From the IMG/VR virus record IMGVR_UViG_2541047697_000005: a stretch of 44,762 bases of DNA, one strand, 5' to 3'. Below are positions 10,695-33,555 of this stretch, piece after piece. The position numbers and the translations under genes are program-made. Position 1 is the first letter of the stretch; each line of letters starts with the position of its first letter. The DNA is from a virus (taxonomy: Duplodnaviria; Heunggongvirae; Uroviricota; Caudoviricetes). The notes beneath the pieces are model-generated. The model worked only from the letters and a program-made list of their open reading frames with translations. It was not told the origin of the DNA and did no database searches.

Positions 10695-10912
10695 CAGAAC
10701 CTCGCCAGCCGGTACCCGGGATGCCCCCGTCGTCGTGTAATCAGAGTCGCAAGGCGGCGCTCCCACTCCTGCCGTCCCTGCCGGATCTCAGATAAGTTTT
10801 CCATGGTCATCTGCTGACCATTAAAAGTGACGGATTTTCCGTCCAGCACCGCCATTTCAGCTTCCGTATAACGCTGAATCATGGCTTCAATATCATTCTG
10901 ATTCATAACCAT
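10694..10912 (-). CDS. Head-tail joining protein W-like
   Basis: 72 aa ending ...TRRRGHPGYRLARF, resembling lambda gpW C-terminus; between terL and portal. Confidence 0.65.
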   Translation of the reverse strand: MVMNQNDIEAMIQRYTEAEMAVLDGKSVTFNGQQMTMENLSEIRQGRQEWERRLATLITRRRGHPGYRLARF

Positions 10913-12015
10913 CCTCCGGAAGTCAGCCAGGGGTTAACATCGTCAGTTACTGTTTTCTTCCGTTTTTGTTTTTTAACAGGCGTGGGTACCGGTTCCGGTG
11001 AGGGTGACGGTTCGGTACTGTCCGGGACACACTCCAGCCAGGTTTCCCGGCTCGCCCACTCCGGTGCATCCGGCCAGCGGATCTTTTCGTATCCATGCAG
11101 AATGACCAGCGCCTCGGCATACACCATCAGGTCAAAAGCTTCGTTGGCACCGCGACCCGGCTTACTCCATTTCCCGTCACTGCTCCGCTCTTCATACGTC
11201 AGTTCGTCGTAAAACCAGCTCCCCAGCCAGTCAGGGAAATGCACATAGCCTGGACCTGGCGAGTCACGCCATAACGCGTTATTCACCCGGTCTTTCAGGG
11301 CATCCGTCTGAAGAAGCCAGAGCGGCACATCACCTGCGGCCTGCGCCCGGCGGCCCGTTCGTCCGGTGTTATCAGGGAATGTACGGCTGATCAGTTTTGC
11401 GCGCCGGATGCTGTCGCCCTTAAACAGGTAAATACGTTTACCAAGGCCATCACGACGGCAACGACGCCAGAATTTATAGGCATTATCAGTGACCCCGTCT
11501 TCACCGCCGGAGTCCACCGCCATTGCCATCAGTCGCATTTGTTGAGAAGGATCGGAGGCCAGCGGCCAGCTTTTATGAAAAACATCCGTCAGCAGGACAT
11601 CCCAGTCTTCCGGATAGCTGGCCGGATCAATTCGCTGGCTCTCCCCGTCGCAGTCACTGCGCAATGACTGCGTGATGTTGTAACGATCAATAATCCAGCG
11701 TTCGCCACGGCTGCCATAGCCCGTTACCTGAACCACAAAACGGCGATGACGTCCCGCCTGCACATCCACTGTCGCCACAAGGAAATTAACGCCATCCGGA
11801 ACACTGCGGGAAGGAACTGGCTCTGCCCGCTGCTCAAGCAGTTCACTTTTTCGTTGCTCCATGCTGGCACGAGGAAGATAAGGCAATCCCCAGTCGGTGT
11901 TGATAACCGCCCTGAGTGTTTCTTCGCTTCCTGTCGCTTCATACTCCTGTTCTGCAGTCAGTAATTTGTAAACCAGTTGCGCCCAGGTCTGATACGCAGC
12001 AGCTGGCCCTTCCAT
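10903..12015 (-). CDS. Terminase large subunit, C-terminal (nuclease) half; gene interrupted by the integrated element
   Basis: 370 aa starting MEGPAAAYQTWAQLV; lambda gpA-like C-terminal region; the ATG lies in the 7-bp repeat at the insertion junction; no ATPase domain in this ORF. Confidence 0.8.
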   Translation of the reverse strand: MEGPAAAYQTWAQLVYKLLTAEQEYEATGSEETLRAVINTDWGLPYLPRASMEQRKSELLEQRAEPVPSRSVPDGVNFLVATVDVQAGRHRRFVVQVTGYGSRGERWIIDRYNITQSLRSDCDGESQRIDPASYPEDWDVLLTDVFHKSWPLASDPSQQMRLMAMAVDSGGEDGVTDNAYKFWRRCRRDGLGKRIYLFKGDSIRRAKLISRTFPDNTGRTGRRAQAAGDVPLWLLQTDALKDRVNNALWRDSPGPGYVHFPDWLGSWFYDELTYEERSSDGKWSKPGRGANEAFDLMVYAEALVILHGYEKIRWPDAPEWASRETWLECVPDSTEPSPSPEPVPTPVKKQKRKKTVTDDVNPWLTSGGWL

Positions 12016-12019
12016 CCAG
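12013..12019. repeat. Left junction core CATCCAG (att core copy 1)
   Basis: Identical 7-mer at 22737-22743; terL homology ends here and AT-rich element DNA begins. Confidence 0.6.
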
Positions 12020-12261
12020 GAAGAAGTAAATAAAAGGTAACTAAATGATTATAAGGTACTATTTAGTTGTAACCCCATCCACATAGTCCAAGATTTAGTA
12101 CCTGCCTAAGCGATAAAAAAAAGAAAAAGGTAGCAATATTAATTAAAAGCTGAATACGCCGCCATGCATTAACACGATGACGCTGCCCGACTGCGCGGCC
12201 TTCTGTTTACCTTCTGGTAGTCTGATTCCGGTGGCACGGCGGATCACGGCGTCGTTCATTA

Positions 12262-12747
12262 TCATGCCTGTTTTACATCCTCATTCACTGCGTCATTTTT
12301 TACCATCCGGCTGATAATCTGATTACACAAATCGTCAATAATTGACTGCACTCTGTTTACTGCCATCGGTTTAAGCCCAGCATCACGTGCCAGAATACTG
12401 GGGAGTTTTTCCAGTTCCTCGCTTACGATTTCCCCCCATATAGCCATCTCTTTTCGCACATCATCGGCGGGTATGAGTTGCGCCGTTTCCTGTTCGAACT
12501 TGAGGCGCTCACGTTCGGACTGATACCAGGCCTTACGGTCGTGTGGCTCCATTTCTTCCAGTGATGCCGGAACGGGAAGATCAAGAAAACAGGTCAGAAT
12601 GTCAGTCACCCGATAGAGTTTCAGCTTGTCATGTCCTCCGGCTGGATGGATATTTTTTAGCCTTGCCGCCGCAGTCTGGCGACATATTCCCGCTATCGCC
12701 GCCAGCTGGTTAATGTTCAGCATCAGATTTTTCAGTTCCCGATCCAT
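12262..12747 (-). CDS. Small terminase subunit (Nu1-like) encoded by the element
   Basis: Start at ATG 12747 (MDRELKNLMLNINQLAAIAGI, HTH-like); KAWYQSERERLKFEQETAQLIP parallels KDWYQSENERIKLEKEQRKLIP of the helper terS at 23735-24274; a cos-like site lies about 150 bp upstream. Confidence 0.7.
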   Translation of the reverse strand: MDRELKNLMLNINQLAAIAGICRQTAAARLKNIHPAGGHDKLKLYRVTDILTCFLDLPVPASLEEMEPHDRKAWYQSERERLKFEQETAQLIPADDVRKEMAIWGEIVSEELEKLPSILARDAGLKPMAVNRVQSIIDDLCNQIISRMVKNDAVNEDVKQA

Positions 12748-12900
12748 ACCCGCTCCAGAATGTTTTAAACATGCATCTTGCAAATATCTTTTAAAAAAGG
12801 TCAAAAAACGCGCCGCATGTTGAACACAAAATAAGCAAAATTAACATACCAAAAATAAAAATACTTAAAATTCAATACAATAGAAAGATGATGATGACGA

Positions 12901-12975
12901 ATGAAAATGCAAAAACTAGCCTTTTTCCGCGCCGCTGCCGCCCCGTGGTAAGGCCACTCCACCGGGAGGACCCGT
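12901..12975 (-). repeat. cos-like site copy 1 (element, upstream of element terS)
   Basis: About 75 bp near-identical to 15438-15511 and 24416-24488; minus strand contains ACGGGGCGGCAGCGGCGCGGAAAAAG, resembling the lambda cos junction as I recall it. Confidence 0.65.
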
Positions 12976-12998
12976 AAAAAAAGGCGGCTATCGCCGCC
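12976..12998 (-). terminator. Rho-independent terminator after element capsid gene
   Basis: Minus strand GGCGGCGATAGCCGCC hairpin followed by TTTTTTT. Confidence 0.55.
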
Positions 12999-13005
12999 CT
13001 TGTTG

Positions 13006-14919
13006 TCATGCTCCACTCGATTTCAGTAGTCCACGATAATCGAGGGCCGCAACACCTGCATCTATGCGCACCTTCCAGGCGACACCATCAACAGTAAAGC
13101 CCTCCTGCTCCTCAAGATATGGCGTATCAATACCATCAAGATAAGCGACCTCTATCGTGTCCATCCCTTTCGCTGCGGCTACATACCACTCCTTGTTATT
13201 GTTCTTATCAAGACGTGGCTCAACAATAACCTCAGCCATATCTTTCACCACGTTAATGATGCCGGGGTTCTGATTGATAGTGCCATCACCATCAACCGGA
13301 AAGAGTGATGACGATGACAGAATGGCGCGATGTGCGGCAGACTCCAGCGCGGCGGGGACCAGGACAAATGCGGGGGTAATATTCAGCGAATCACCGTTAG
13401 CGTCCTCCTGGAGGCGCATCAGCTTACGGGCTTCGTTAAGCCCCTCCATGTCCATATCCTTCGCAATAAGATTTTTATGATCGGCATGGAATAGCGCCTT
13501 ACCATCCGTGAATTTGCCGTTGCCGGTTAACAGGAGATACACCAGATTACCTACTGTTCTGGCGGCTGCACGCCCCATCGCCATGGGGATTGTAGTTAAC
13601 TGGGTCAGGTCATCGTTAATAATGGCCTGGCGGGTAACGGAAAAAATATTCCCGTATGTGGCCAGCGCAATAGGTACGCCTTTATCTCTGGTGGTGATGT
13701 ATTTATATTCCGCACCTTCCGGTACTTTATCCAGCTTTGAAAAACCATTCAGACCAACACGCTTTGCTTCATGAAAGTTTGAAAGCGATCCGCTACGCGT
13801 CCACTTCTGGAACGTTTCGCCGCTGTCCTGCCAGCCTTTCAGAACTGATTTTTCAGCACCACCAGCCAGAATATGAGAAAAATCGCTGCTGCTGTGTGTG
13901 AAAGCTGCATTAACGACCTGCGAGCGATTTAAAAAACCGCCAACACTGATACCACGATCCGTTAGTGATGCCTGGGCCATTTCAAAAAGGCTCATCATCG
14001 CGTAAGGATTTCCCCGCTCTGGGCGTTCATACCCGAGACGAGAATAAAGCCCCTGACGAATTGCATCACCTGTTATGTTCCCGTTACCGGCATAAATATG
14101 AGCCGGGGTATTTTTATTTGATGGCGTGGACTCGCGCCCCATCTCGTTCAACAACTTTTCACGGGCCATCTCCGGTGTACATGATGCATCTTCCAGGCAC
14201 GCCATTTTGATCCCGTCGTAACGACTGCCGAACAGGCTAAACACTTCACTTATTCCGTTGATGCGCTTCTGTTCATTACCAGCAATATTGGCTGCTCCCT
14301 GTGGCGGGGTAATCATTCCTTTAATGGTTTCCGGCATGTGTGAAAAATCTCCTGTGCGTTTCGATTCAATTCGCGCCATTGCTCTGACGGATGGCAACAA
14401 TTCATCAGCAAAACCGTGCTTAAGGCATTCTTTCCCGTCCATCCAGGTTTCATCTTCCAGCATGGCGGTAATTTCCTGTGCTGATTTGCCCGTTTTTCTG
14501 GCATAAGCAGGGATTAACACGGTTTCCACCTTATCCAGCAAATCAGCATAATCACGCATATCACCAGCATTTCCGCCAGAGATACCCCACGGCTTATGTA
14601 TCATCATCATGGCGTTTTCCGGCATCACAACACGATCGCCAGCCATTGCGACAACCGAAGCCATTGAAGCCGCAACACCATCGATATAAACCGTAATTTC
14701 TGCCGGATGATTCCGTAACAGGTTATAGATGGCGATGCCTTCAAACACGTCACCACCTGGCGAATGGATCCGCAGGTCGATATGTGAGACATCGCCCAGG
14801 GCTTTCAGGTCTTCCGCAAACTGCTTCGCGGTGATACCGAAGCCGCCAATTTCTTCATAGATGGATATTTCTGCCGCTCCGCGAACACCCGCCGCCTTAA
14901 TGGTGTACCAGTGATTCAT
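13006..14919 (-). CDS. Second prohead protease-major capsid fusion protein (element copy)
   Basis: 637 aa colinear with the helper protein at 7214-9172; shared blocks include SPGGDVFEGIAI, MIHKP, EKLLNEMGRESTPSNKNTPAHIYAGNGN, RQAIINDDL, TIEVAYL. Confidence 0.8.
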   Translation of the reverse strand: MNHWYTIKAAGVRGAAEISIYEEIGGFGITAKQFAEDLKALGDVSHIDLRIHSPGGDVFEGIAIYNLLRNHPAEITVYIDGVAASMASVVAMAGDRVVMPENAMMMIHKPWGISGGNAGDMRDYADLLDKVETVLIPAYARKTGKSAQEITAMLEDETWMDGKECLKHGFADELLPSVRAMARIESKRTGDFSHMPETIKGMITPPQGAANIAGNEQKRINGISEVFSLFGSRYDGIKMACLEDASCTPEMAREKLLNEMGRESTPSNKNTPAHIYAGNGNITGDAIRQGLYSRLGYERPERGNPYAMMSLFEMAQASLTDRGISVGGFLNRSQVVNAAFTHSSSDFSHILAGGAEKSVLKGWQDSGETFQKWTRSGSLSNFHEAKRVGLNGFSKLDKVPEGAEYKYITTRDKGVPIALATYGNIFSVTRQAIINDDLTQLTTIPMAMGRAAARTVGNLVYLLLTGNGKFTDGKALFHADHKNLIAKDMDMEGLNEARKLMRLQEDANGDSLNITPAFVLVPAALESAAHRAILSSSSLFPVDGDGTINQNPGIINVVKDMAEVIVEPRLDKNNNKEWYVAAAKGMDTIEVAYLDGIDTPYLEEQEGFTVDGVAWKVRIDAGVAALDYRGLLKSSGA

Positions 14920-15125
14920 TGCTCACCCCCAGATGCAAAACCATTCTTATCAAGCCACGCGTTAACTGCGTGTCTGACAATCTGCGCCACACCTGGTAAT
15001 GGTTGGCCAGGATGATGATTTATGTGGTCGATCCTGTACTGCTTAAGGCGCATAACGGTCTGCGCATCCAGATGAACGGAACCACCTCTTACCTCGCCTG
15101 TGTTCAGGTCATTAATACAATTCAC
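14916..15125 (-). CDS. Hypothetical 69-aa protein translationally coupled to the element capsid gene
   Basis: GTG start with AAGAGGAAG RBS; its stop overlaps the capsid ATG; no family recognised. Confidence 0.45.
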   Translation of the reverse strand: MNCINDLNTGEVRGGSVHLDAQTVMRLKQYRIDHINHHPGQPLPGVAQIVRHAVNAWLDKNGFASGGEQ

Positions 15126-15227
15126 AGTAACTTCCTCTTACTGACTAAACTGCGTGCATTATTGATCGATAAAAGTGGTAGATAAACATATTTCTATCAT
15201 AAAAACAGATTAGTCAGATTCAGACAC

Positions 15228-15250
15228 AAAAAAGCCGGAGAAAATCCGGC
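15228..15250 (-). terminator. Rho-independent terminator
   Basis: Minus strand GCCGGATTTTCTCCGGC hairpin followed by TTTTTTGT. Confidence 0.5.
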
Positions 15251-15285
15251 ATAAATATCCCGCCATCTGAACACGTTTTGACACT

Positions 15286-15511
15286 GGCAACTCCACCTGG
15301 CAGGTGAAAAACATATTTATTTATATATTTCAATTAATTACAAACTGGTCTAATGACAGGGCGAAAAAAATATTGTACAGGTGAAAACGGAAATATTTTT
15401 TAATTATCAATAAATTATCACACATGCTGCCGCCGCCATGAAAATGCAAAAACCAGCCTTTTTCCGCGCTGCTCCCGCCCCGTGGCAAGGCCACTCCATC
15501 GGGAGGACCCG
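15286..15511 (-). repeat. cos-like site copy 2 (element), extended ~225 bp duplicate of the helper cos region
   Basis: Near-identical to 24265-24488 including the AT-rich segment and a stub of the terS 5' end (GTGGAGTTGCCAGTGTCAAAACGTG vs helper ATGGAGTTGCTTATGTCAAATGTG). Confidence 0.65.
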
Positions 15512-15512
15512 T

Positions 15513-15534
15513 AAAAAAGCCGGATTGTTCCGGC
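15513..15534 (-). terminator. Rho-independent terminator after ssb
   Basis: Minus strand GCCGGAACAATCCGGC hairpin followed by TTTTTT. Confidence 0.55.
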
Positions 15535-15550
15535 TTCTGTCACTCGTTGC

Positions 15551-15973
15551 TTAAAACGGTATGTTATCCCCGTACGGATCATCATTTCCCGCCTGTTGTT
15601 TTGCCCTGTTCAGCGCGTCAGTAGCCTGGCCCTGCTGGCCTTTTTTGCCGCCCGGTCGCGCCGTTCTCGCACTGATTACGCTGTCTGCGATGACCTGCCA
15701 GCCCTGCCGCGTTTCGCCGTTCTGGCCTGTCCACTGGCTTACCTGCATGTTACCCGCCACGCTCACCAGTTCGCCTTTATGGTGTCTGGCCAGTGCGTCG
15801 GCCTGTCTGCCAAACGCCAGGACGGATAACCACATCGTCGCCGTTCCGTCATCTGCCTGGCTGCACGGCAGGGAAACCGCCATACTCGCCATCGCCATTG
15901 TTGTGCCCTTGCTGGTGGTCTTTAACTGCGGGTCAGCCACCAGCCGCCCGTAAGCCGCTATCTGTGCTGTCAT
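15551..15973 (-). CDS. ssb: Single-stranded DNA-binding protein
   Basis: 140 aa, Gly/Gln-rich tail ending DDPYGDNIPF (SSB C-terminal acidic motif). Confidence 0.75.
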   Translation of the reverse strand: MTAQIAAYGRLVADPQLKTTSKGTTMAMASMAVSLPCSQADDGTATMWLSVLAFGRQADALARHHKGELVSVAGNMQVSQWTGQNGETRQGWQVIADSVISARTARPGGKKGQQGQATDALNRAKQQAGNDDPYGDNIPF

Positions 15974-16227
15974 GCTGTATGCTCTCCGGTTTTAACGTTG
16001 ATGGTTGTCACCTGTTCCGCTTCGGCAATCTCCCGATCTGTCAGCGTGGCAAAGTTTGCCGCCGCTGTGGTCATGAATGCGCTTATCAGTTCGGGATGTG
16101 CTTTCGCGTATCCCTCTCCCGTGTTGCGGTCGATGATTTTTATCGCCATCCTCAGCCAGTGCTCTGTAAGGTCAATGGCGCGGTTATGTGGTTTCTTCTG
16201 ATTGTTAAATTTTCCTGATGTGTGCAT
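15970..16227 (-). CDS. Hypothetical protein
   Basis: 85-aa ORF overlapping ssb start; no family recognised. Confidence 0.4.
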   Translation of the reverse strand: MHTSGKFNNQKKPHNRAIDLTEHWLRMAIKIIDRNTGEGYAKAHPELISAFMTTAAANFATLTDREIAEAEQVTTINVKTGEHTA

Positions 16228-16261
16228 TTTTATTTTTACCCCCCTCGTTTAAAAAGTTTTG

Positions 16262-16505
16262 AGTTGTACCTCCCCTTGTCTACCTTATCTACCTTGCTGG
16301 CCCCAATGCCAGTAATGGCGCGGCTTTCAGCGGGGTAGAGTGCTTTTATCCACTATCTACCCCGTATCTACCTCCCTGTCTGATTCAGGTAAAATCAGGT
16401 AGAGAGGGTAGATAGTAGGTAGATAGTGAAAAAATGCTGTCTACCTAAGTTAATGTACTGAATTAAATGTATTTTCCTTTACTCAGGTAGACAGGGTAGA
16501 CAGCC
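16262..16505. repeat. Iteron array, putative replication origin of the element
   Basis: At least 10 copies of an 8-9 bp unit RGGTAGAYA / TRTCTACC in both orientations, immediately downstream of the primase-helicase gene. Confidence 0.65.
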
Positions 16506-16516
16506 ATTGCAAAAAA

Positions 16517-18271
16517 TTATAAAAACGCGTCGCAATCGTCTGTTGTTATTGCGTTAGTCTGCGTTACCCCCTTAACTTTCCGCGTAATATATTCATGTCC
16601 GTAAACTTTCGCGGCGGGCTTCATAGCCTTGCCAAAGTCATTTACGTTCAGCGGTTTGGTCCTGCCTGCGTAAGCCATAAACGCCAGATAGACACGGTAA
16701 AGGCTGTTCCTGGTTGTGTACTTCACGGAATCACCACCGCCGCCCATCATCAGGCCACGCGCTTCCTCCAGAAAATTCAGGAACTGGCAAAACTCAATAA
16801 CTGGATCCGTTTGCTGCTTTATCGCCAGTGCTTCATCACCGTCACGCTGTTCCAGTAGTAAAGCCCGTGCCTTCTCAGGGTCGGTAAAGTTCGCCAGCAA
16901 TCGGCGGATAATAACGGGGATTTCAGCCGCAATCTTTTCCGGTAGCTCCCTGTCTTTTTCGGCCTCACTGACGATATTGTCGAAACGGAAAATCACGCGA
17001 CGACGTGCCACACCTCCGGCACGTTCGGTGAATATCATCGGGTTGTTGTTGGTCGCCAGCACCACCGCCCTGATTACCGCCGTGAAACGCTTTTCATATT
17101 TCGGGTTAATTTCCACGGGGTCGCCGCCTGTGATTTTCTTGATGCCCGTTCCTTCTCCTGTATATTTCGGCTGGTCAGCCAGGACGATAAGACGACTCCC
17201 GACAACCTGCGCACGTCCACCAGCATCATCAAGCGATGTCATTTCAGCGCTTACCGTGTTCTGTTTCCCTGCCAGAAGGCTGGCTATGTGTGTGAATGTA
17301 CTTTTACCGCTCCCGCCGTCTCCGGTGGCCTCAATAAACATCTGCCAGTCGTACCGGTTCGCCATAATCATGTACAGCGCGGCACATATACGCATCATCT
17401 TGCGCGGGTCTTTTCCGGCTGCGTGCTCAAGCCATTTATGAAAGTTTGGCGCGTTATCGCGGATGTTTTCCCCTGGTGCTGGTAGCGTGTACTCAATGCC
17501 GTTGTGCGTGGTGATCCAGTTCTCCGGCGTGTGCGGGGAAAATTCCCCCGTTTTCAGGTCAAGCGCACCATTGGCGAACGGCAGCAAATCGCCGGACGGC
17601 TCGCCCATTGGTTCGGCAATAACTTTTAACGCTTCCACGGCGTTATTGATTACGCGCTTGCTGAAAGTGGCCCTGTGCTCTGAATAGATCGCCACCATTT
17701 CGCGGCTAAGTTCCATTGTGCTGACCTGACACCATACCCCGCCGCGCCATACGTGAACGATTTCACTTTCAGGATGTACGCAAACGCCATCAAAGCGATC
17801 GGCTAGCAGCTGCGCGCGCTCACTGTCCGCCATCTGCGAAAGTTGCGCCTTTTGCTTTACCGGAAGCTCAATGACCAGACCATCAGAAAGATTCTGGCGC
17901 TCACGGGCCAGATATTCGCGCCAGTTCTGCACCTCCTGGCCGTGCATACCCTCAGGATAAAAATTTGCATCCTGTACGCCTGCCGCCGCCAGCTTCTGAC
18001 CAATCGCCTTTATCATTACTGGCGCAAGATATCCGGCCCTGAATATGCGCACGGATTTTCTGCCTTCCGGCACAATTTGCAGCTTATCCAGTTCGGATAA
18101 CTGCTGCTCCCCAAGCCACACAGGAGGCTCATTATCTCCGGCCATACGCGCGTCATGTTCCTGCCATTGTTTTGCGTGTGACCAGGCATCACTACCCGCA
18201 AAAATAATTACCTCTGTGTCTTTGTTTTTTATTCCGCGAGGCTGTTTTTTTACGTTCGGTGCCAGTTTCAT
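16517..18271 (-). CDS. Primase-helicase (P4 alpha / D5-family)
   Basis: 584 aa with Walker A GDGGSGKST; P4-type primase C-terminal region; adjacent iterons. Confidence 0.8.
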   Translation of the reverse strand: MKLAPNVKKQPRGIKNKDTEVIIFAGSDAWSHAKQWQEHDARMAGDNEPPVWLGEQQLSELDKLQIVPEGRKSVRIFRAGYLAPVMIKAIGQKLAAAGVQDANFYPEGMHGQEVQNWREYLARERQNLSDGLVIELPVKQKAQLSQMADSERAQLLADRFDGVCVHPESEIVHVWRGGVWCQVSTMELSREMVAIYSEHRATFSKRVINNAVEALKVIAEPMGEPSGDLLPFANGALDLKTGEFSPHTPENWITTHNGIEYTLPAPGENIRDNAPNFHKWLEHAAGKDPRKMMRICAALYMIMANRYDWQMFIEATGDGGSGKSTFTHIASLLAGKQNTVSAEMTSLDDAGGRAQVVGSRLIVLADQPKYTGEGTGIKKITGGDPVEINPKYEKRFTAVIRAVVLATNNNPMIFTERAGGVARRRVIFRFDNIVSEAEKDRELPEKIAAEIPVIIRRLLANFTDPEKARALLLEQRDGDEALAIKQQTDPVIEFCQFLNFLEEARGLMMGGGGDSVKYTTRNSLYRVYLAFMAYAGRTKPLNVNDFGKAMKPAAKVYGHEYITRKVKGVTQTNAITTDDCDAFL

Positions 18272-18555
18272 TTCTTACCCCCTGCGACCAGCATTTCACG
18301 GATTTTGCGGATATAGCTTGCTGCACGTTTCTGATTTACGGCTTTACGATGGCCCACCAGCTTAAAATCACGCCGGAACTGATAAACAGGCATCACGCAG
18401 TCGTAGCTGTACCCATCACGGCGGTAAGTAACGCACCGTCCGGCAATACTTTTAATCGTTACCGTGCCGCCGTAGTTATCCCGGAAAATATCGCCGGGGC
18501 GGATTTCAGGCCGAGCGGGGCCGCTGGCAGTAAAGCCAGAAATTTTCTGTTTCAT
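18268..18555 (-). CDS. Hypothetical protein
   Basis: 95-aa ORF, stop overlaps primase start. Confidence 0.45.
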   Translation of the reverse strand: MKQKISGFTASGPARPEIRPGDIFRDNYGGTVTIKSIAGRCVTYRRDGYSYDCVMPVYQFRRDFKLVGHRKAVNQKRAASYIRKIREMLVAGGKK

Positions 18556-18560
18556 GGTTT

Positions 18561-18770
18561 TTATTCCTCTGCGCGGGTCTTGTTGTGTATTTCCATAACC
18601 GCGTTTAATTCATCAATAACCGGGGTTAACAGAGTGCTGAAAGCAGAAAATAAATCCCCCCCCTGTTCGGCATGAACTTCGGTTAATTTAATTAATACCG
18701 CTTTCATTTCCAGTGCCCGATTTAATGCATTCTCAGAATGAATAAGAACATCGAAAGGGATTTCATTCAT
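18561..18770 (-). CDS. Hypothetical protein
   Basis: 69-aa ORF in operon context. Confidence 0.4.
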   Translation of the reverse strand: MNEIPFDVLIHSENALNRALEMKAVLIKLTEVHAEQGGDLFSAFSTLLTPVIDELNAVMEIHNKTRAEE

Positions 18771-18996
18771 GGCTCACCACCTCCGGGAATTTTCTTCTGT
18801 AACGCGCCTCTGCAACATATTCCGCATAGTCCGACGCAATATTGAGAATATCGCTACCCGTTCCTGAATGTTCGGCGGTTTCCAGTAAAAAACATGCAGC
18901 TTTTACCATGTCAGCAACACATAACAGCGCAATATCTGTATCTTCCGGTGCGCCATCAAATTCCTGTTTCAGGGCATTAAAACGATCATCACGCAT
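18763..18996 (-). CDS. Hypothetical protein, possible downstream part of a gene split at a poly-G tract
   Basis: 77-aa ORF whose ATG sits 2 nt after a G12 run; one extra G fuses it with the ORF at 18969-19232. Confidence 0.4.
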   Translation of the reverse strand: MRDDRFNALKQEFDGAPEDTDIALLCVADMVKAACFLLETAEHSGTGSDILNIASDYAEYVAEARYRRKFPEVVSHE

Positions 18997-19232
18997 AACC
19001 CCCCCCCCCCATTTTCACAATCCGTAATCAGGATGGCTTTAGCCTCATTCAGCGCCATATCAGCGGTAAGCTGTGCGTAGGCCAGCGAATGGGGGATTAT
19101 TGCCCCTGTATATTCCGGCTCTCTGGTAATGTGTTTTTCTGCGGTTGCTGCCGTGCATGAAATATCAATCAGCGCGTGCATCAGCGTTCTGATAGCTTCG
19201 GCGGCTGCGTCCTGACGGGGGTTATTGCACAT
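18969..19232 (-). CDS. Hypothetical protein, possible upstream part of a gene split at a poly-G tract
   Basis: 87-aa ORF translating the G12 run as GGGG and ending 9 codons later. Confidence 0.4.
   Translation of the reverse strand: MCNNPRQDAAAEAIRTLMHALIDISCTAATAEKHITREPEYTGAIIPHSLAYAQLTADMALNEAKAILITDCENGGGGLCVMIVLMP
18999..19010. repeat. Homopolymer C12 (G12 on coding strand)
   Basis: 12 consecutive C on plus strand. Confidence 0.95.
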
Positions 19233-19488
19233 GGCGCACCTCCTGACGAATACGGGCGGCGAATACCATCACGCAGCCAGCCGGAGATTGCTGGCGTGCT
19301 TCCTGTTCGCTGGTGGCCTCGATGGTAATCACGCGCGGCTGTGCCGTGCTCAGGGCGATAAAACGCCAGATGTATTTATTCAGGTTGTGCGAGTCCCGCC
19401 CTTGCGGGTGTGTGGTATGATTTCTCATAGCTACCTCGATACGCTTTCTATCGTTGGTGGTTAGAAGCCCTGCGAGTGGTAACGACAC
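19222..19488 (-). CDS. Hypothetical protein (first gene of the element leftward operon)
   Basis: 88-aa ORF starting next to the divergent regulatory region. Confidence 0.4.
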   Translation of the reverse strand: MSLPLAGLLTTNDRKRIEVAMRNHTTHPQGRDSHNLNKYIWRFIALSTAQPRVITIEATSEQEARQQSPAGCVMVFAARIRQEVRHVQ

Positions 19489-19525
19489 TTGCGGGGCTTT
19501 GTCTTTTCATCGATTACCTTAACAA

Positions 19526-19608
19526 AGGTGTCAGCCACTATATTAGTAACAGGTGTCAGCCACGTCAATGGTGTTTTTCCGTTTTCTTGTGTGTATACTG
19601 TCAGCCAC
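19526..19608. promoter_or_regulatory. Divergent regulatory region with three direct repeats GTCAGCCAC and a TATACT -10 element
   Basis: GTCAGCCAC at 19530, 19555, 19600; first two extended as AGGTGTCAGCCAC; TATACT at 19594-19599 abuts the third repeat, 30 bp before the ATG at 19630. Confidence 0.5.
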
Positions 19609-19629
19609 CTAATAACGAGGGAATCCGAT

Positions 19630-19809
19630 ATGGCAACGAAAGCAGTTAATGGAAAATCCAAAAAACTTGAGGCTCGAGTACCCCACGCAATAGCTGACGC
19701 TGTAGAAAATTTAAAGGAAGAAGGCGAAAGCACAGGGCAATTTATCGTTTCGGCACTTGAAGGCGAGATCAAACGCCGCCAGCGTCGCAAGGCCAAAGAG
19801 CAGGAGTAA
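19630..19809 (+). CDS. Small ribbon-helix-helix-like DNA-binding protein, candidate regulator of the element
   Basis: 59 aa MATKAVNGKSKKLEARVPHAIADAVENLKEEGESTGQFIVSALEGEIKRRQRRKAKEQE; ACGAGGGA RBS; downstream of operator repeats. Confidence 0.5.
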   Translation: MATKAVNGKSKKLEARVPHAIADAVENLKEEGESTGQFIVSALEGEIKRRQRRKAKEQE

Positions 19810-19866
19810 CCATCACCAGCGCCGTGGTGCGGTGAACTGTGGCGCACAGGGCTACAGGTATCTACG

Positions 19867-20064
19867 ATGACTGACAAATCATTAAAGAAATTATCTTCAT
19901 CCAGGAAAAAACAACGCAAAAACGCGGTAAGCGAACAAGAACAGGAGAGATTCGCGCCATGTGCGTTTGTCCTTGAGAAGTTCTTAAAAGAGTACAGGCG
20001 CACAAAAATGGGGCTATATACCTGGAAAACATCGCAGCATGGCGATGCTAAAGAGCAGGAATAG
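19867..20064 (+). CDS. Hypothetical small basic protein
   Basis: 65-aa ORF following the RHH gene; weak RBS. Confidence 0.3.
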   Translation: MTDKSLKKLSSSRKKQRKNAVSEQEQERFAPCAFVLEKFLKEYRRTKMGLYTWKTSQHGDAKEQE

Positions 20065-20291
20065 CCCACCAGCAAGCCAGCACACTGATCACATTGCCAA
20101 CCGGATGTAATCACGGCATAGTAATCAGCGCTCATGCGTTGGGGATAACGTGTAGCTTGTGTCGAATGGCCACCGTAGCAGGTGGCCTTTGTTTTGCCTG
20201 TTATCCGGCAATTGTGGCGCTTCTCCACACGGTTGATATAATCCCCCTGCACAGATTCATTTTTTGCGCAGTAGGTTAATTGTTCGCAAGG

Positions 20292-20322
20292 GCGCTCCGG
20301 CAACGGGGCGCTTTTTGTTTTT
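20292..20322 (+). terminator. Rho-independent terminator
   Basis: GCGCTCCGGCAACGGGGCGC hairpin followed by TTTTTGTTTTT. Confidence 0.55.
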
Positions 20323-20480
20323 ACCCACCAGCACAATAAAAATCCTCTTTTCCCATTTTTGTAAAATTTCATGCTTTCCGGACGACTGGCCATATATCTT
20401 TTTTAGCAGAAGATTTTGCCTTGCTGGTTGGTAGCTTCCCGGTCCAACACGATGTACCGTATAATCAGCACTGCGAGTGG

Positions 20481-21059
20481 TTACTGAATACGCTCACCAA
20501 AGTAAAACTCAGGCTGATATTCACGTATCAGCCTTTTTTCTTCTTCCTCCAGCTCACGCTTTTTGCGCTTACAGGCCTGTAGCTCCCTCCCCTTCTCGCT
20601 GGCACTTATCTGATATTGCTCTTTACGGCGAGAAAAATCCTGTAATGCGCCCCACGGGATACCATAAGCCCCCGTTTTTCTGATACCCGGTATCACATTT
20701 CTGAATACCCAGTTACTGAAACGATGAGCAAATGTGCCAGGCGTCGTTGCTTTGCGGCTGCGGGCTATTAGTTTGTAGAAACCTGACTCAGAGATAATGC
20801 TCATATTCTGATTTCCTCCTGGGGTGTAAGTTAAATTTACTCCCTTTTCATCATCATCAAGCATCTGCAACGCCGTACGCGAATTGGTTAGTTCCAGCGC
20901 AGCACAAACATCTTTTGCAACAAACCACGGATCGCCGTTCAGATACACCACACGAACATCCACGCCATCAAAGCGCAGAACGACAAGATCACGAATATCG
21001 CAGAATTTTTTTACTGAACGAGCGTACCCCTTGCCCGTCACGGCAATATTTTTATTCAT
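20481..21059 (-). CDS. Bro-N domain protein (antirepressor-like)
   Basis: N-terminus LVVLRFDGVDVRVVYLNGDPWFVAKDVCAALELTNSRTALQMLDDDEKG matches the Bro-N pattern. Confidence 0.7.
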   Translation of the reverse strand: MNKNIAVTGKGYARSVKKFCDIRDLVVLRFDGVDVRVVYLNGDPWFVAKDVCAALELTNSRTALQMLDDDEKGVNLTYTPGGNQNMSIISESGFYKLIARSRKATTPGTFAHRFSNWVFRNVIPGIRKTGAYGIPWGALQDFSRRKEQYQISASEKGRELQACKRKKRELEEEEKRLIREYQPEFYFGERIQ

Positions 21060-21117
21060 CGTTTTTTACCTCACATACAAAAAACCCCGCATTGCGTGCG
21101 GGGTATGAAAGATATTA

Positions 21118-21321
21118 TTAGTGGGGATTGGCCTGTTCTCGTTGTTTATCTAACCATGCCTCTACATCTCTACGGTGCCAGGTATGCCGCCGCCCAATTC
21201 TGAACGGTTGAGGAAAACCATTATTTTCATCTTTCCAGAAATTGATGAATGCGCTCATTGCCCCATAGCGCAAAATTTTCATTACGTCTTTAGTAAATAA
21301 AATATCTTCATTGGTATTCAT
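21118..21321 (-). CDS. alpA: AlpA-family transcriptional regulator/excisionase
   Basis: 67 aa; MKILRYGAMSAFINFWKDENNGFPQPFRIGRRHTWHRRDVEAWL resembles AlpA; adjacent to integrase. Confidence 0.75.
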   Translation of the reverse strand: MNTNEDILFTKDVMKILRYGAMSAFINFWKDENNGFPQPFRIGRRHTWHRRDVEAWLDKQREQANPH

Positions 21322-21333
21322 TTGCTGAACTCC

Positions 21334-22572
21334 TCAACCATTTACTATTCTCAAACCTTTCTTACCACAGGATCTATTAATTACCCCTTTTCTCGCCTCA
21401 TCAAAAAAATCGCCTACCCATTGCATCATAATTTTGCGTTGTTCTAAATAAGTAGTTCTATTATAAATATCTCTTATTTTATCACCACTTTTATGTGCTA
21501 ATGCAGCCTCAATAACATCAGGGTTAAAACCCTCCTCATTTAAAAGCGTACTCCACATCGAACGAAAACCATGTAACGTTACAATCCCTTTGAACTTGCT
21601 GGCAGCAATTGGAGTATTGATAGTATTCCTCCCCATAGGCGCGTCTTTGGTTCTGGATGAATAGAATACATAACGCCCTCTTTTAATTTCCTGCATTGTT
21701 CTGAGGATGCTAATGGCCTGTGATGACAGGGGCACAACATGTTCACGATGGCATTTCATTTTATGCTCAGGGATAACCCACAGACCAGCATCAAAATCTA
21801 TCTCTGCCCACTCTGCCTGGATCGCCTCTCCAGGCCTGACCATTGTCAATATCTGGAATAAAAGCGCATTGTGAGCTATTTGATACTTATGAGGCACACT
21901 ATCCCACCAACTCAGAAATTCAGGTAATTTTTCTATAGGTAACGCTGCTAATAATTTATTTTTCTTTCCAGTGAATGCTGTCTTTATTTTAAGCAATGGA
22001 TTTATTTTCAATGCACCACAATTTACAGCGTAATTCATAATTTCATTTAATCTTGATATTAATTTTTTTTGCAGCGCGTTTTTATCAGATACGGCATCCA
22101 GTGCCTTAATTGCTAATGGTGCTGTAATTTTATCTATGCTGTATTTACCAAAGAAAGGAACAAGATACTTATATACTTCATATTCGATATTATACAACGT
22201 AGGTTTCCTCAACTCCGATCCTTTTTTAAAAGCGAACCATGCATTAGCAACGACTTCAAATGTCTGTAGATTTTTTAGCGCCATCTCAATTTTACGATTT
22301 TTCTTCTCTGTCACTGGATCAACTCCACGTGCAATCATTCGCCGAAGTTCATCACGTACTTCCCGTGCTTCCGCGAGTGAGAATTCAGGAAAACGCCCTA
22401 TCGTGTATGTCTGCCGTTTCTTCGTTATCGGATGGCTATAACGGAAACGCCACACTTTCCCACCAGCTTTACTCACATTCAGCAATAAACCGAACCCATC
22501 ATAAACGGCATAGTCCTTTTCACGTGGTTTCATTCCCTTAACTTCAGTCACGGTTAATGGCTTTACCGGCAT
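21334..22572 (-). CDS. Tyrosine integrase (P4 / CP4-57 IntA type) of the element
   Basis: 412 aa with P4-int-like N-terminus (GKVWRFRYSHPITKKRQTYTIGRFPEFSLAEAREVRDELRR) and C-terminal catalytic region (HGFRSMWSTLL...); AT-rich; next to the junction. Confidence 0.8.
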   Translation of the reverse strand: MPVKPLTVTEVKGMKPREKDYAVYDGFGLLLNVSKAGGKVWRFRYSHPITKKRQTYTIGRFPEFSLAEAREVRDELRRMIARGVDPVTEKKNRKIEMALKNLQTFEVVANAWFAFKKGSELRKPTLYNIEYEVYKYLVPFFGKYSIDKITAPLAIKALDAVSDKNALQKKLISRLNEIMNYAVNCGALKINPLLKIKTAFTGKKNKLLAALPIEKLPEFLSWWDSVPHKYQIAHNALLFQILTMVRPGEAIQAEWAEIDFDAGLWVIPEHKMKCHREHVVPLSSQAISILRTMQEIKRGRYVFYSSRTKDAPMGRNTINTPIAASKFKGIVTLHGFRSMWSTLLNEEGFNPDVIEAALAHKSGDKIRDIYNRTTYLEQRKIMMQWVGDFFDEARKGVINRSCGKKGLRIVNG

Positions 22573-22733
22573 CTATCGCCCTCATTTTTTAGTCCGTCAT
22601 GTAGTCCTTTCAAGTCGATAACAAGCGATAAACTAACTCATTATCAAGTAAAGAGAGGAAACACCAAAAATCACAACTCATTGAAAAGACTACAAAACGA
22701 CACCAGAACATAAAAACAGGTAAGAAATGTACC

Positions 22734-23726
22734 CTACATCCAGAAACTGGCGATACGGGAGCGGCGCGGTTCACCGGAAACGTTGCCGTTACGATCAATG
22801 ACCTGACCTTCACGCAACCAGACTCCTGCACTATTGAGCTCACGCTTTTTCTCCGCAGTGATAATGCCGCTGCAGTGCGGGCAAAGTAGATACGCCGCCT
22901 CACTGGCTTTAAAGGGATCCGGTTCATTACGGTAGCCGGTCATGGCATCCATAGCTGGCTGAAAATATTCACCGCAGTGCGGACATGGCCAGTACCAGCG
23001 GCGGCGGTCACCACGATTGTAAAGGGAAAGAATACCAGTCGTCGGTGGCGCTTCATGAGGCGACTTACGTCGCCATTTGCTGTCGCAGATGTCACGTCCC
23101 GGCGAGCTCTCCACCAGAGTCATCCCGGCGGACATAAATGTGGTGGTACGTTTTGAGGCCAGGGAGAAACCATCACCCTCGCTGTCGATATTCTCCGGAA
23201 AACGGTCGTAATCGGTTAAGGCGACAAACCGGTAATCCGACGACGACATAATGTTGACCGAGGGCCAACCAATTTTAAGGAACGAGCCATCCCTGAACGT
23301 CTTATCATGGACATTATTGTCGTTACGACGTGGACTCATTCTTTTCTTTACCGCCGCACTGCTTCTGAACGTTCTGTCGAGGCGCTTTTTAGAATGCTCG
23401 CGGGCCTTATCTTCGGTCATCTGCACAACGAGCATGTCCGAAGGATCGCAAACGATGGTATAGACAATCCATCCATCGATCAGACCAATGGTCTTCCCTG
23501 TTCGCGCAGGACCAACAAAAATCACCGCATCGTATTCACGCGATGCCAGGCAGTTCATGGGCTCAATGATGTAGGGTGTCAGTTCAGGATCCCATGGCAC
23601 CGAGTTACCAGCCCCCTTGGGAACACGCATGAATTTTTTAACAGCCTCCGAAATCGGCATGCGACGTGGTGGGGAAAATCCTGCCGATATGTCCCTTCCC
23701 AAATTTCGGGCTGATGAAAAACCCAT
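22734..23726 (-). CDS. Terminase large subunit, N-terminal (ATPase) half; gene interrupted by the integrated element
   Basis: 330 aa with FVGPARTGKT P-loop, WPCPHCGEYF and LLCPHCSGII motifs paralleling lambda gpA; ends ...RIASFWM followed by stop in element-derived sequence. Confidence 0.8.
   Translation of the reverse strand: MGFSSARNLGRDISAGFSPPRRMPISEAVKKFMRVPKGAGNSVPWDPELTPYIIEPMNCLASREYDAVIFVGPARTGKTIGLIDGWIVYTIVCDPSDMLVVQMTEDKAREHSKKRLDRTFRSSAAVKKRMSPRRNDNNVHDKTFRDGSFLKIGWPSVNIMSSSDYRFVALTDYDRFPENIDSEGDGFSLASKRTTTFMSAGMTLVESSPGRDICDSKWRRKSPHEAPPTTGILSLYNRGDRRRWYWPCPHCGEYFQPAMDAMTGYRNEPDPFKASEAAYLLCPHCSGIITAEKKRELNSAGVWLREGQVIDRNGNVSGEPRRSRIASFWM
22737..22743. repeat. Right junction core CATCCAG (att core copy 2)
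   Basis: Identical 7-mer to 12013-12019; terL N-half reading frame terminates (TAG) 1 codon into element DNA. Confidence 0.6.
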
Positions 23727-23734
23727 TATTCCTC

Positions 23735-24274
23735 CTAGAGACTCTCTCCTTCCTCATCAGGAATTAATTCAGCAGCACAAGCCTCGTAGGATTTTTCCTG
23801 AAGAGTGTATCGCAGGTCATCAATGGCCTGCTGTACAACGCCGACGGCCTGAGGAGTCAGGGCGCAATCGCGTTCAAGAACATCCGGAATTGTCTCCAGA
23901 ACCTGGACGACAGCCTTTCTCATGGACGAATAGACGATGACTACTTCATCAACTGGGATGAGTTTTCGCTGCTCCTTTTCCAGCTTGATCCTTTCATTTT
24001 CAGACTGGTACCAGTCCTTTCTCTCTTTCGGCTCCATACGGGATGGATCATGAACAGAGTCTGCTGCCTCATGCTTCACACTAAACAGGGCGGGCCCGAC
24101 ATGCTGCAGGGCGTAAACGGGGTTCCCCCTGACAGTCGCAGCCACAGGAGTGTTGGCCGCGAGGAGCCGTTTTTTTACTGTGTCCCGGTGAAGCCCAAAG
24201 GCCTCGGCGATTTTAAAAACACTCCAGTAATAAGCATCACCGATCCCGCTCACATTTGACATAAGCAACTCCAT
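23735..24274 (-). CDS. Small terminase subunit (Nu1-like) of the helper prophage
   Basis: 179 aa, N-terminal HTH-like region, immediately upstream of terL and downstream of cos. Confidence 0.75.
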   Translation of the reverse strand: MELLMSNVSGIGDAYYWSVFKIAEAFGLHRDTVKKRLLAANTPVAATVRGNPVYALQHVGPALFSVKHEAADSVHDPSRMEPKERKDWYQSENERIKLEKEQRKLIPVDEVVIVYSSMRKAVVQVLETIPDVLERDCALTPQAVGVVQQAIDDLRYTLQEKSYEACAAELIPDEEGESL

Positions 24275-24488
24275 CTGGCAGGTGAAAATCAGGTTTATTT
24301 ATATATTTCAATTAATTGCAAACTGGTCTAATGACAGGGAGAAAAAAATATTGTACAGGTGAAAAGAGAAATAACTTTTAATTATCAATAAATTACCAAA
24401 CATGCTGCCGCCGCCATGGAAATGCAAAAACTAGTCTTTTTCCGCGACGCTCCCGCCCCGTGGCAGGGGCCCCCACCGGGAGGACCCG
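24275..24488 (-). repeat. cos-like site copy 3 (helper prophage cos, upstream of terS)
   Basis: Minus strand contains CCACGGGGCGGGAGCGTCGCGGAAAAAG plus AT-rich segment, located between lysis-side genes and terS as in lambda. Confidence 0.7.
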
Positions 24489-24818
24489 ACAGCCTGACAG
24501 CCGTGACGAGCATCTGATACAGCGCTTTACATAATGGCATAGGAATAATTCAGAAGGACATCACAGCATGCCCACACAAATTAGTGTGAGTGTCCTGTTT
24601 CTTCCTACGCACAGGACTGACGAGCATGAGGGGAAAATACGCGAACCATAAATGCCTCATCTTCAGCAATGCAGCCGAACAGGACGATATTGTAAATTCA
24701 CCTAATTACGAGGACATTGCAGTAGTTGAATTGCAGCTCTGTATTAGCCTGCAGTGACAGAATGCGATATTGACTCTGTCACAGGTGAAATAGTTTGAAT
24801 GATTAGCAGTTATGGTGC

Positions 24819-26464: not shown

Positions 26465-26735
26465 GATGTTACCGTAGTATGTGAGTATCCATCGAATAGA
26501 CACCAAGCAAAAAAGCTCCCGAAGGAGCCTTCATTTTCACTTTTTTAAATCCAACGACAGACGGCTGGCATTTAAGTATTGTGAAATATTATCAAATGTA
26601 ATCATCATTGATTTACAAAAGATACATTTTGCCCCGAAAGGATTCATGTCAGAAACATCAAAAGATGATGTTCTATACTGGGAACCATGACAACACGGGC
26701 ATCTAAAGTGAATATGGTTTGTAATATTGTCTACC

Positions 26736-26948
26736 TCAAAGCGCCACTACATGAACAGCGGCAGGACCTTTAGGTCCGTTCTCAATACCAAATTCAACTT
26801 CCTGATTCTCAGTTAATGTTTTGAAATCGTTGCTCTGAATTGCTGAGAAATGGACAAACACATCTTTGCTGCCATCTTTCGGCGTGATGAAACCAAAACC
26901 TTTTTCAGGGTTAAACCATTTCACTAAACCAGTCATTTTGTTAGACAT
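26736..26948 (-). CDS. cspI: Cold-shock protein CspI-like
   Basis: [53 protein letters not shown]...: cold-shock domain with RNP motifs; long 5' leader. Confidence 0.85.
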
Positions 26949-27316
26949 AATTATTACCTTTTGAAGAAATTAGCCCTTGGGCAGAATGGTCCGAAAAAAA
27001 ATATCAGAGAGAAAAACCAACAAGGAAATCTCAAGAGGTACAAATAATAAAATTATAACAATGACTGCTTCAGATAAATTTGTAACAAACCAGAACACCA
27101 TTAACGCATGATTAACCACCCATAGCAAGGATTACTTTTGTAAAGAAAAACACAGCAATGAAAGAATAGCTTTATTTATTAATAAAACGTGTCATTCTGA
27201 TTAAGACCTTTTATCTTACCCTTAAGATTTCAGGAATTTTGACTCATGGAAGAGTCCTTTTTATTTAAATTTTACATTCAGCGATGTAAATGTTCCGATT
27301 TAATATTACCCTACAT

Positions 27317-29338: not shown

Positions 29339-29619
29339 GAGATTGTGGTGCTTTTTGTGGGAGTCATCCACTTACGCACTTTGTTTTGCCATGCCAGCAG
29401 TTAGCTTCTGCTGTAAAACTATTCATGCAGCAAACCTGCACTTCACCACAATGGTTAGCATACTTTTCCTGATTAAGATTTTGCCAAATATGCTGGCCAT
29501 TGTTTCATGTATTGGACCTCCTTAAATTTTATTAAAGAAATCCAATATTCACTACTCTGTCCGTATCTCTACTCAGGCATCAGCCTTCTTCGTTATCGTA
29601 TACAGACGAGCGATGAATT

Positions 29620-29835
29620 TTAATCAGTAATGATGACATTTGCTGCTGCAGGACCTTTAGCACCACTCTCTATAGAGAAGGTAACCTTTTGACCTTCAAA
29701 TAAGGTTCGATAATTATCATTCTGAATCGCAGAAAAATGCACAAACACATCTTTACTACCATCAACAGGAGAAATAAAGCCGAAACCTTTATCAGCGTTA
29801 AACCATTTTACTAAACCAGTCATTTTATTTGACAT
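29620..29835 (-). CDS. cspB: Cold-shock protein CspB-like
   Basis: [67 protein letters not shown]... Confidence 0.85.
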
Positions 29836-30135
29836 TCTACATTCCTTAACTTGAGCCTTTCGGCATAAATGGTTTGCATAACAGAAACGACTTCGTACTT
29901 AATTGGAGAGACTCAAAGAAGGAATAAGTGAATAACACCTGAAATGAGAACTGCTTTAGTAAACTACTTCGTATATCGTCTGTTCTTCAAACCGACGCAA
30001 TCATTAACGCATAGTTGAACATATGAAGCAATGTTTATTTTAGACATCCAGCCATCTTCAACCCCATCAAAAAACTATAGCTTTCTTCAGGAACGTGTGT
30101 ATAGTGCGCCAAGTTATCAGTATTAAGGAATTTTT

Positions 30136-33399: not shown

Positions 33400-33555
33400 T
33401 TACTCCTCAGGTTCGTAAGCTGTGAAGACAGCGACCTCCGTCTGGCCGGTTCGGATTCGTACCTCGCAGAGGTCTTTCCTCGTTACCAGTGCCGTCACTA
33501 TGACGGTTAAACAGATGACGATCAGGGCGATTAACATCGCCTTTTGCTGCTTCAT
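33400..33555 (-). CDS. hokD: Hok-family type I toxin
   Basis: MKQQKAMLIALIVICLTVIVTALVTRKDLCEVRIRTGQTEVAVFTAYEPEE; upstream leader has long inverted repeat typical of hok mRNAs. Confidence 0.85.
   Translation of the reverse strand: MKQQKAMLIALIVICLTVIVTALVTRKDLCEVRIRTGQTEVAVFTAYEPEE

Follow-up and report, generated by a model that had tools for sequence, protein, structure and literature searches.

Why does a phage satellite, itself lodged in the large terminase gene of a prophage, carry a second copy of that prophage's packaging site running on into the first codons of the small terminase gene? The locus lies in a 44,762-nt stretch of phage DNA (Caudoviricetes; IMG/VR record IMGVR_UViG_2541047697_000005), referred to here in its entirety as the window. 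A sequence-only reading had noted the repeated cos region and the remnant of terS within it, and regarded them as the footprint of past recombination between helper and element at the packaging module.

A PICI-type satellite within the helper terL gene

Within the window lies a lambdoid prophage that has phages cdtI and Tritos as relatives and a lysis region of the Qin type; a PICI-type satellite sits in its terL gene. On the minus strand, from high to low coordinate, the window presents the helper lysis genes, the helper's own cos (copy 1), terS, the ATPase half of terL, the satellite, the nuclease half of terL, the portal gene and the head and tail genes. The features that frame the satellite are:

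24250..24490, minus strand: cos copy 1, of type A, belonging to the helper prophage itself; base 24458 is where the records of phages cdtI and Tritos begin
23735..24274, minus strand: helper TerS (type A, DUF1441 / phrog_141)
22741..23726, minus strand: N-terminal half of helper terL, GpA ATPase domain, interrupted by the satellite
12017..22744, minus strand: PICI-type satellite, 10,724 bp, in the same orientation as the helper late genes
10903..12016, minus strand: C-terminal half of helper terL, GpA nuclease domain

The two satellite edges share the sequence CATCCAG (12014-12020 and 22738-22744), and terL is split at ...ASFW/MEGP.... Joined, its halves encode 700 aa, of which 694 are identical to TerL of phage cdtI; cdtI itself shows the intact site (...CCATCCAGAAACTGG...) and a 700-aa TerL. 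Misassembly of the composite was considered and rejected, because the layout of helper plus satellite recurs in eight other complete E. coli genomes. Rfam hits in the helper comprise a DicF RNA, a sok antitoxin RNA and two cspA-type thermoregulators (listed at 39956-40007, 33550-33724, 29604-29996 and 26709-27094), a set consistent with a Qin-like early and lysis region.

The satellite genes are arranged in the order int, AlpA-like gene (phrog_66), Bro-N, Icd-like region, D5_N primase (D5_N/DUF5906), SSB, cos copy 2, orf69, a ClpP-capsid fusion, cos copy 3 and TerS'. Its late genes are thus the capsid gene, orf69 and TerS', with no portal, terL, tail, lysis or connector gene among its ORFs and annotations. 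Given the missing terL, portal, tail and lysis genes, induction and transfer of the satellite would depend on a helper. Two of the late genes lie directly downstream of copy 2:

14916..15125, minus strand: orf69 (phrog_4934, E = 3e-30), a small gene that is conserved and overlaps the capsid gene at the latter's start
13006..14919, minus strand: satellite fusion of ClpP protease and major capsid protein, 637 aa, sharing 57% identity with the corresponding helper fusion

In some E. coli relatives another sequence occupies the orf69 position, and no coding-strand gene is annotated there.

Two other satellite identities were rejected. P4-like satellites carry the capsid-size and late-control genes sid, psu and delta and a P2-type cos; the window satellite has none of these genes, its cos is of the lambda type, and an Rfam scan of it detected neither of the P4-type immunity RNAs (C4, isrK), leaving the Icd-like gene and an alpha-like primase as common features only. 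The cf-PICIs bring a complete set of genes for capsid formation and packaging (capsid, protease, portal, head-tail connectors, TerS and TerL) and need the helper only for tails. In the window satellite this set is reduced to the protease-capsid fusion, orf69 and TerS', with no portal, TerL or connector gene; the definition applied here comes partly from the abstract of a preprint (10.1101/2022.09.08.507074). The element instead shows the features described for Gram-negative PICIs (Fillol-Salom 2018), namely a length of 10-20 kb, an end bearing int and alpA, primase and replication genes in the same orientation, and no lysis or tail genes.

The helper cos is repeated within the satellite

The repeat that raises our question is the following feature:

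15272..15511, minus strand: cos copy 2, a cos of helper type ('type A') within the satellite, spanning cosQ to a vestigial terS start; identity to 24250-24490 is about 90%, and its limits are shared by all related elements

Without gaps, 15277-15490 and 24255-24468 are 90% identical over 214 nt; a gapped alignment extends the pairing to 15272-15511 and 24250-24490, a repeat of about 235 bp at about 90% identity. The 81-nt cos core alone gives a BLAST E value of 9e-18, and the similarity of copies 1 and 2 is far beyond chance. From cosQ the match passes through cosN, the whole of the AT-rich cosB and the terS ribosome-binding site into about 25 nt of helper terS, where it ends. On the minus strand the helper reads ATGGAGTTGCTTATGTCAAATGTG descending from 24274, and the element GTGGAGTTGCCAGTGTCAAAACGTG descending from 15296. 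Apart from the 81-bp core of cos copy 3, copy 2 is the sole long similarity between element and helper at the nucleotide level.

The duplicate of about 225 bp described in the sequence-only reading is therefore real: its coordinates were accurate to within about 10 nt, both quoted strings are exact on the minus strand, and helper and element had been correctly told apart. The similarity also reaches the first 25 nt or so of helper terS, as had been claimed; rather than stopping at the cos core, the alignment goes on into the terS start, with cosB, ribosome-binding site and first codons all matching.

Predicted packaging signals in copy 2

Copy 2 retains the following elements, listed from the SSB side towards the terS start:

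15512..15534, minus strand: intrinsic-terminator hairpin and T-run after the SSB gene; the T-run abuts cosQ of copy 2
15504..15510, minus strand: cosQ-like heptamer GGGTCCT, read from the sequence
15469..15480, minus strand: predicted 12-nt cohesive end, GGGCGGGAGCAG, homologous to helper 24447-24458 (GGGCGGGAGCGT)
15405..15417, plus strand: IHF-consensus match TATCAATAAATTA within cosB, in a segment kept in all copy 2 and type-A helper sequences
15378..15387, plus strand: first of two candidate TerS-binding repeats, CAGGTGAAAA
15301..15310, plus strand: second candidate TerS-binding repeat, CAGGTGAAAA, ending 7 nt before the terS start position

The heptamer lies 23 nt before the predicted nick and is kept in copy 1, in copy 3 and in nearly all relatives. 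At copy 1 the nick position is supported by the genome records of phages cdtI and Tritos, which both begin exactly there, at window base 24458, reading GGGCGGGAGCGT; copy 2 would be cleaved at the homologous position. The IHF consensus is WATCAANNNNTTR. The decamer CAGGTGAAAA (TTTTCACCTG on the minus strand) has four exact copies in the window, all in copies 1 and 2, compared with 0.15 expected by chance. By analogy with lambda, we take these decamers as putative R-type repeats and the consensus match as a putative IHF site. cosQ, cosN, the IHF match and both repeats are all intact in copy 2, which has, at the level of sequence, the arrangement that marks a lambda-type cos: a cosB with IHF match and repeats, placed between cosN and terS. 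On the other side, the terminator after the SSB gene folds at -17.4 kcal/mol (z = -4.2), and the junction of SSB gene, terminator and cosQ is conserved in 45 IMG/VR loci.

The predicted overhangs of the window each carry a private substitution, in copy 2 (GGGCGGGAGCAG) and in copy 3 (GGGCGGCAGCGG), where relatives have GGGCGGGAGCGG or GGGCGGGAGCGT. The overhangs of copies 2 and 3 differ at two positions, and ends from different sites would pair imperfectly. The private substitutions could be harmless, or could weaken nicking.

A vestigial terS start

The distal end of copy 2 holds two further features:

15210..15296, minus strand: vestigial 5' end of terS and 28-codon frame; homology to the helper covers about 15272-15296 and the rest is non-conserved
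15234..15250, minus strand: intrinsic-terminator hairpin directly after the stub, kept in all relatives; the 28-codon frame runs through it

The stub is the weakest part of the match, at 64% identity to the helper over 25 columns of a MAFFT alignment (about 19 of 25 when aligned by hand). The change of ATG to GTG reported for it is confirmed by the quoted strings, and both terS ATGs are GTG in copy 2 of the window. In some relatives the stub lies nearer the helper sequence, e.g. in L002, where ATG is kept. The remnant frame of about 28 codons that had also been reported is present, at 15296-15210, but is not conserved: a 1-nt deletion breaks it in three of ten relatives (L002, L006 and L007). 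Similarity to helper terS stops 10-24 nt past the first terS ATG in every relative.

Most likely the stub has no function of its own and is a by-product of keeping the last cosB repeat. Since that repeat lies only 7 nt from the terS start, any fragment that holds the whole of cosB includes the start as well. Loci that mimic the other helper type, described below as type B, fit this explanation: there the helper homology ends well upstream of terS, as expected if nothing but the closeness of the last repeat to the gene accounts for the type-A stub.

Copy 2 among related elements

To place copy 2 in a wider context, we compared 12 related E. coli elements and the 45 IMG/VR loci that share the junction of SSB gene, terminator and cosQ. 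Copy 2 occurs with the identical breakpoint in all 12 elements and in about 20 of the IMG/VR loci, among them satellites at chromosomal sites (L002, L092, L093 and L094; sites smrA/abgR, tRNA-Ile and tRNA-Pro). The satellite-bearing helpers fall into two cos/terS types, type A as in the window (also L001, L003, L006, L007 and L009) and type B, whose TerS starts MDRELKNL (L004, L005 and L008). Their TerL N-terminal halves are 76% identical over 311 aligned residues, and the satellite occupies the same terL insertion site in both. Copy 2 is nevertheless of type A in every element, including those inside type-B helpers. Compared with one another, copy 2 sequences show 92-100% identity, and compared with type-A helper cos sites 84-92%; the window's copy 2 is 87.0% identical to its own helper and 86.2-88.3% identical to other helpers.

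Within copy 2, conservation is uneven. Among 21 distinct sequences, nucleotide diversity is 0.041 in cosB versus 0.077 in the adjacent stub, terminator and spacer, and variable columns make up 20% versus 45%; the motifs used for selection were masked for these figures, which come from related sequences and so retain some ascertainment. The full module with two cos sites is present in 175 of 5,426 E. coli genomes, and type-A and type-B terS are each found in about 15-17% of complete E. coli genomes (788 genomes; about 900 at an identity of at least 95%). The suggestion that a full terS might stand at this position elsewhere was followed up and gave none: a chimeric query of SSB gene, copy 2 and complete type-A terS matched in 0 of the 5,426 E. 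coli genomes, and a complete terS was likewise absent from this position in the 45 IMG/VR loci.

Downstream of this conserved junction of SSB gene, terminator and cosQ, the IMG/VR loci carry either the type-A cosB with stub and capsid operon, or other modules. One of these is a cosB resembling that of type-B helpers, without terS and followed by a capsid operon of the lambda-E type; further cosB types are also seen. None of the 45 loci is on a contig that starts or ends at cosN. Two loci, L097 and L131, show within the first 750 nt past the SSB terminator a single hybrid cos, in which the left side of copy 2 is joined to the cosB of copy 3 and TerS'; both lack orf69 and the capsid gene. Such a hybrid is the product expected from recombination, or from cutting and rejoining, between two cos cores. 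In L094, at the tRNA-Pro site, copy 2 is mosaic, with a cosN-proximal segment of another type (15090-15160, minus strand); both of its distal repeats and the terS stub are type A.

cos copy 3 and TerS'

Downstream of the capsid gene the satellite has a second cos of its own and a small terminase homolog:

12901..12981, minus strand: cos copy 3, the satellite's other cos core, which leads into a cosB of another kind; its cohesive end is predicted to lie at 12932-12943 (GGGCGGCAGCGG)
12262..12747, minus strand: TerS', 161 aa from MDRELKNL, a full-length, diverged relative of the type-B helper TerS

The core of copy 3 is 94% identical to that of copy 2. Together, copy 3 and TerS' align with the cos-terS region of type-B helpers, in diverged form (about 68%). 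Relative to the type-B helper TerS, TerS' has changes in the helix-turn-helix region and at the C-terminus, and the cosB of copy 3 has diverged in parallel. This module probably provides a private or alternative route into capsids.

Six elements carry one more T between cosQ and cosN (CCTTGCC), in copy 2 as well as in copy 3; seven elements lack it in both copies, as do nine of nine helper cos sites (comparison of the window, L001-L009 and L092-L094). This shared state suggests exchange between the two cores, i.e. concerted evolution within an element. A stricter version, in which covariation of copies 2 and 3 would break exactly at the nick as in hybrids made by terminase, was rejected, as exchanges occur on both sides of the nick.

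Origin of copy 2

Six relatives from other genera (Trabulsiella, Kluyvera, Phytobacter, Yersinia, Buttiauxella and Moellerella) have satellite-type capsid genes at 71-80% protein identity. The capsid gene is followed by a cos core in all six, and preceded by an orf69 homolog in five, the Phytobacter locus being cut off at that point; a DUF1441 terS homolog lies downstream in two (Buttiauxella and Phytobacter). None of the six has a cos upstream of orf69. The downstream cos alone being present in these genera indicates that copy 3 and TerS' are the older part, and that the E. coli lineage acquired copy 2 afterwards.

The origin of copy 2 is best explained by capture from a phage of the same type as this helper, as judged from the comparisons: long nucleotide similarity is confined to copy 2 and the cos cores, and the proteins are far more diverged. 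Comparison also supports the position of the putative capture junctions, the left one in the conserved cos core and the right one 10-24 nt into terS. The identical breakpoint everywhere, the lack of any excess similarity to the element's own helper and the conserved cosB indicate an old, inherited event at a site that seems to be under selection. They point to a single old capture and truncation followed by vertical inheritance, with selection acting on cosB and none on the stub. The recombination footprint of the sequence-only reading thus stands in so far as copy 2 is homologous to a helper-type cos-terS junction and was apparently captured, but not as the mere scar of an exchange between this helper and this element: identity to the resident helper is not raised, and the same breakpoint is found in chromosomal satellites and in those embedded in type-B helpers.

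Function of copy 2

We consider it likely that copy 2 is a working, TerS-less cos of the helper type, used by the type-A helper terminase on satellite concatemers, with the stub as a by-product of the complete cosB. On induction, the satellite would excise, restoring the helper terL, and replicate as concatemers. The TerS-TerL complex of the helper would then bind the cosB of copy 2 as it does at its own cos, nick cosN and package the satellite DNA. Four satellite units come to 42.9 kb, which is 91-93% of the 46.4-47.0-kb phage genomes; being this near the helper genome length, the satellite would probably be packaged as multimers. A point against this reading comes from EcCICFT073, a PICI with two cos sites: transfer by lambda rose when one of them was deleted (PMC6092414), so that with some helpers an extra cos may make no difference or be a burden. 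The private substitutions in the predicted overhangs also tell against it.

We think it unlikely that copy 2 is instead a decoy that titrates helper TerS, or a termination-only site (cosQ plus cosN) that sets the packaged length when packaging has started from copy 3 with TerS'. With a TerS' of its own and a copy 3 whose cosB is private, the satellite perhaps does not need copy 2 for the start; the hybrid cos of L097 and L131 implies that the module on the copy 3 side can stand alone, and of the two EcCICFT073 sites, one is dispensable (PMC6092414). However, termination in lambda needs cosQ and cosN, not cosB (PMC9026076), and cosB is the most conserved part of copy 2. Moreover, PICIs of the L098 class, which have no TerS, carry a TerS-less helper-type cosB at the same position, which fits a start site for the helper TerS.

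It is quite improbable that copy 2 is a dead scar, i.e. a decaying copy of the cos-terS junction produced by past homologous or illegitimate exchange between resident helper and element. The element is only 1.7 kb from the helper cos, hence with the chance for exchange, and the GTG codons in place of both terS ATGs, the broken stub frame of some relatives and the private overhang change in the window's copy 2 could all be read as decay. Yet the same block with the same breakpoint is carried by all relatives, chromosomal and type-B-embedded ones included, identity to the element's own helper is not elevated, cosB is about twice as conserved as the neighboring non-coding DNA while the stub is not, and cosQ, cosN, the IHF match and both repeats remain intact. 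A non-packaging role, with the block derived from the region upstream of a phage terS and acting as promoter, leader or regulatory region of the orf69-capsid operon, would suit its position upstream of these genes and the retention of the terS Shine-Dalgarno and start region, but is highly improbable given that the coding strand of the block has no promoter-like site, a terminator separates the stub from orf69, the stub frame is not conserved, and relatives from other genera express orf69 and the capsid gene without the block.

The presence of two cos sites could have a further meaning, which we put forward as possible but doubtful: the two may act as two keys, copy 2 mimicking type A and copy 3 with TerS' forming a diverged type-B module, with the cos core as the joint at which cosB and late modules are swapped among PICIs and phages. 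Were this true, the pair may widen the range of usable helpers, since helpers of either class are common in E. coli and carry the satellite at one and the same terL site. It offers a testable idea for the role of paired cos sites in such satellites. The finding does not overturn current understanding. It gives a base-pair view of how a satellite may gain a helper packaging signal, in which a cos region extending into terS was taken, the part read by terminase was kept and the rest decayed. Satellites of this sort are vehicles for virulence and defence genes in E. coli, and there is thus practical value in knowing which helpers package them.

Comparison with known systems

The cos of the window resembles that of lambda in the order cosQ-cosN-cosB, in its position upstream of terS (Nu1 in lambda), in the heptamer GGGTCCT, in the GGGCGG... 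start of the 12-nt overhang and in an IHF-consensus match between cosN and the distal repeats. It differs in the sequence of cosB and its repeats, the two clear repeats of the window being direct rather than inverted, and a sequence search detects no similarity between lambda Nu1 and the window TerS (DUF1441). Satellites of the SaPIbov5 type in Staphylococcus likewise carry a copy of the helper cos and are packaged by the helper terminase without a satellite TerS (as cited in PMC6092414 and PMC5052747); they belong to an unrelated Gram-positive lineage, for which neither a terS vestige nor a helper-embedded position is reported.

The configuration of the window is of an already published kind, the helper-embedded PICIs, which are PICI-type satellites integrated in, and co-oriented with, the late genes of lambdoid prophages (Tommasini, Mageeney & Williams 2023, PMC10111431). 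The type element, 11capE (helper prophage 50icd), and its helper have in common a 258-bp sequence of 90% identity, located where cos lies (PMC10111431). The likeness extends to the order of four zones (integration, Bro, replication, late), the possession of a capsid gene and the block of about 250 bp and about 90% identity at cos (PMC10111431). There are also differences: the capsid of 11capE is of the lambda E type rather than a ClpP-capsid fusion; 11capE is described as having no terS, whereas the window satellite has a second cos and its own TerS; and a shared block reaching into terS is not described for 11capE (PMC10111431). The target gene differs as well. The gene-A sites found named in that paper and its supplements (A_Terminase_1_132, _246) belong to the Terminase_1 family, and a text search turned up no GpA-family site like the window's terL among those named. 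The published clade is defined by an integrase of a single clade and 14 listed sites, and its attP centre has a doubled TGTATTGC motif roughly 81 bp upstream of it and 132 bp downstream (PMC10111431). The att arms of the window satellite (12021-12260 and 22573-22737) contain no copy of the doubled motif, even with one mismatch allowed. Because the GpA site was not found among the named gene-A sites and the arms lack the doubled motif, a different integrase lineage may have reached the helper-embedded lifestyle here. An insertion in a GpA-type terL, flanked by att arms without the motif of the published clade, adds a point to what is recorded of such satellites.

The closest parallel for the paired cos sites is EcCICFT073, in which two functional cos sites are used by the helper terminase to package concatemers of phage length (Fillol-Salom et al. 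2018, 2019; PMC6092414, PMC6739421). Both satellites have two cos sites with phage-like cosQ and cosN, the terminase being in each case that of a lambdoid helper (by our reading, for the window), and each has, downstream of one of its cos sites, a TerS-like specificity gene (cos-rpp in EcCICFT073, copy 3 and TerS' in the window). In EcCICFT073 neither cos has the helper cosB, and specificity comes from Rpp, a shorter TerS mimic. Redirection of this type involves an Rpp of 139-154 aa encoded beside a PICI cos that lacks the helper cosB, and was rejected for the window satellite. Sequence search found no Rpp relative for TerS' or orf69 and no meaningful match among solved structures (RppC chains, Nu1); TerS' is a full-length DUF1441 homolog, and the cosB of copy 2 is of the helper type. 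Unlike EcCICFT073, the satellite described here therefore combines a complete helper-type cosB at one cos with a full-length TerS homolog at the other.
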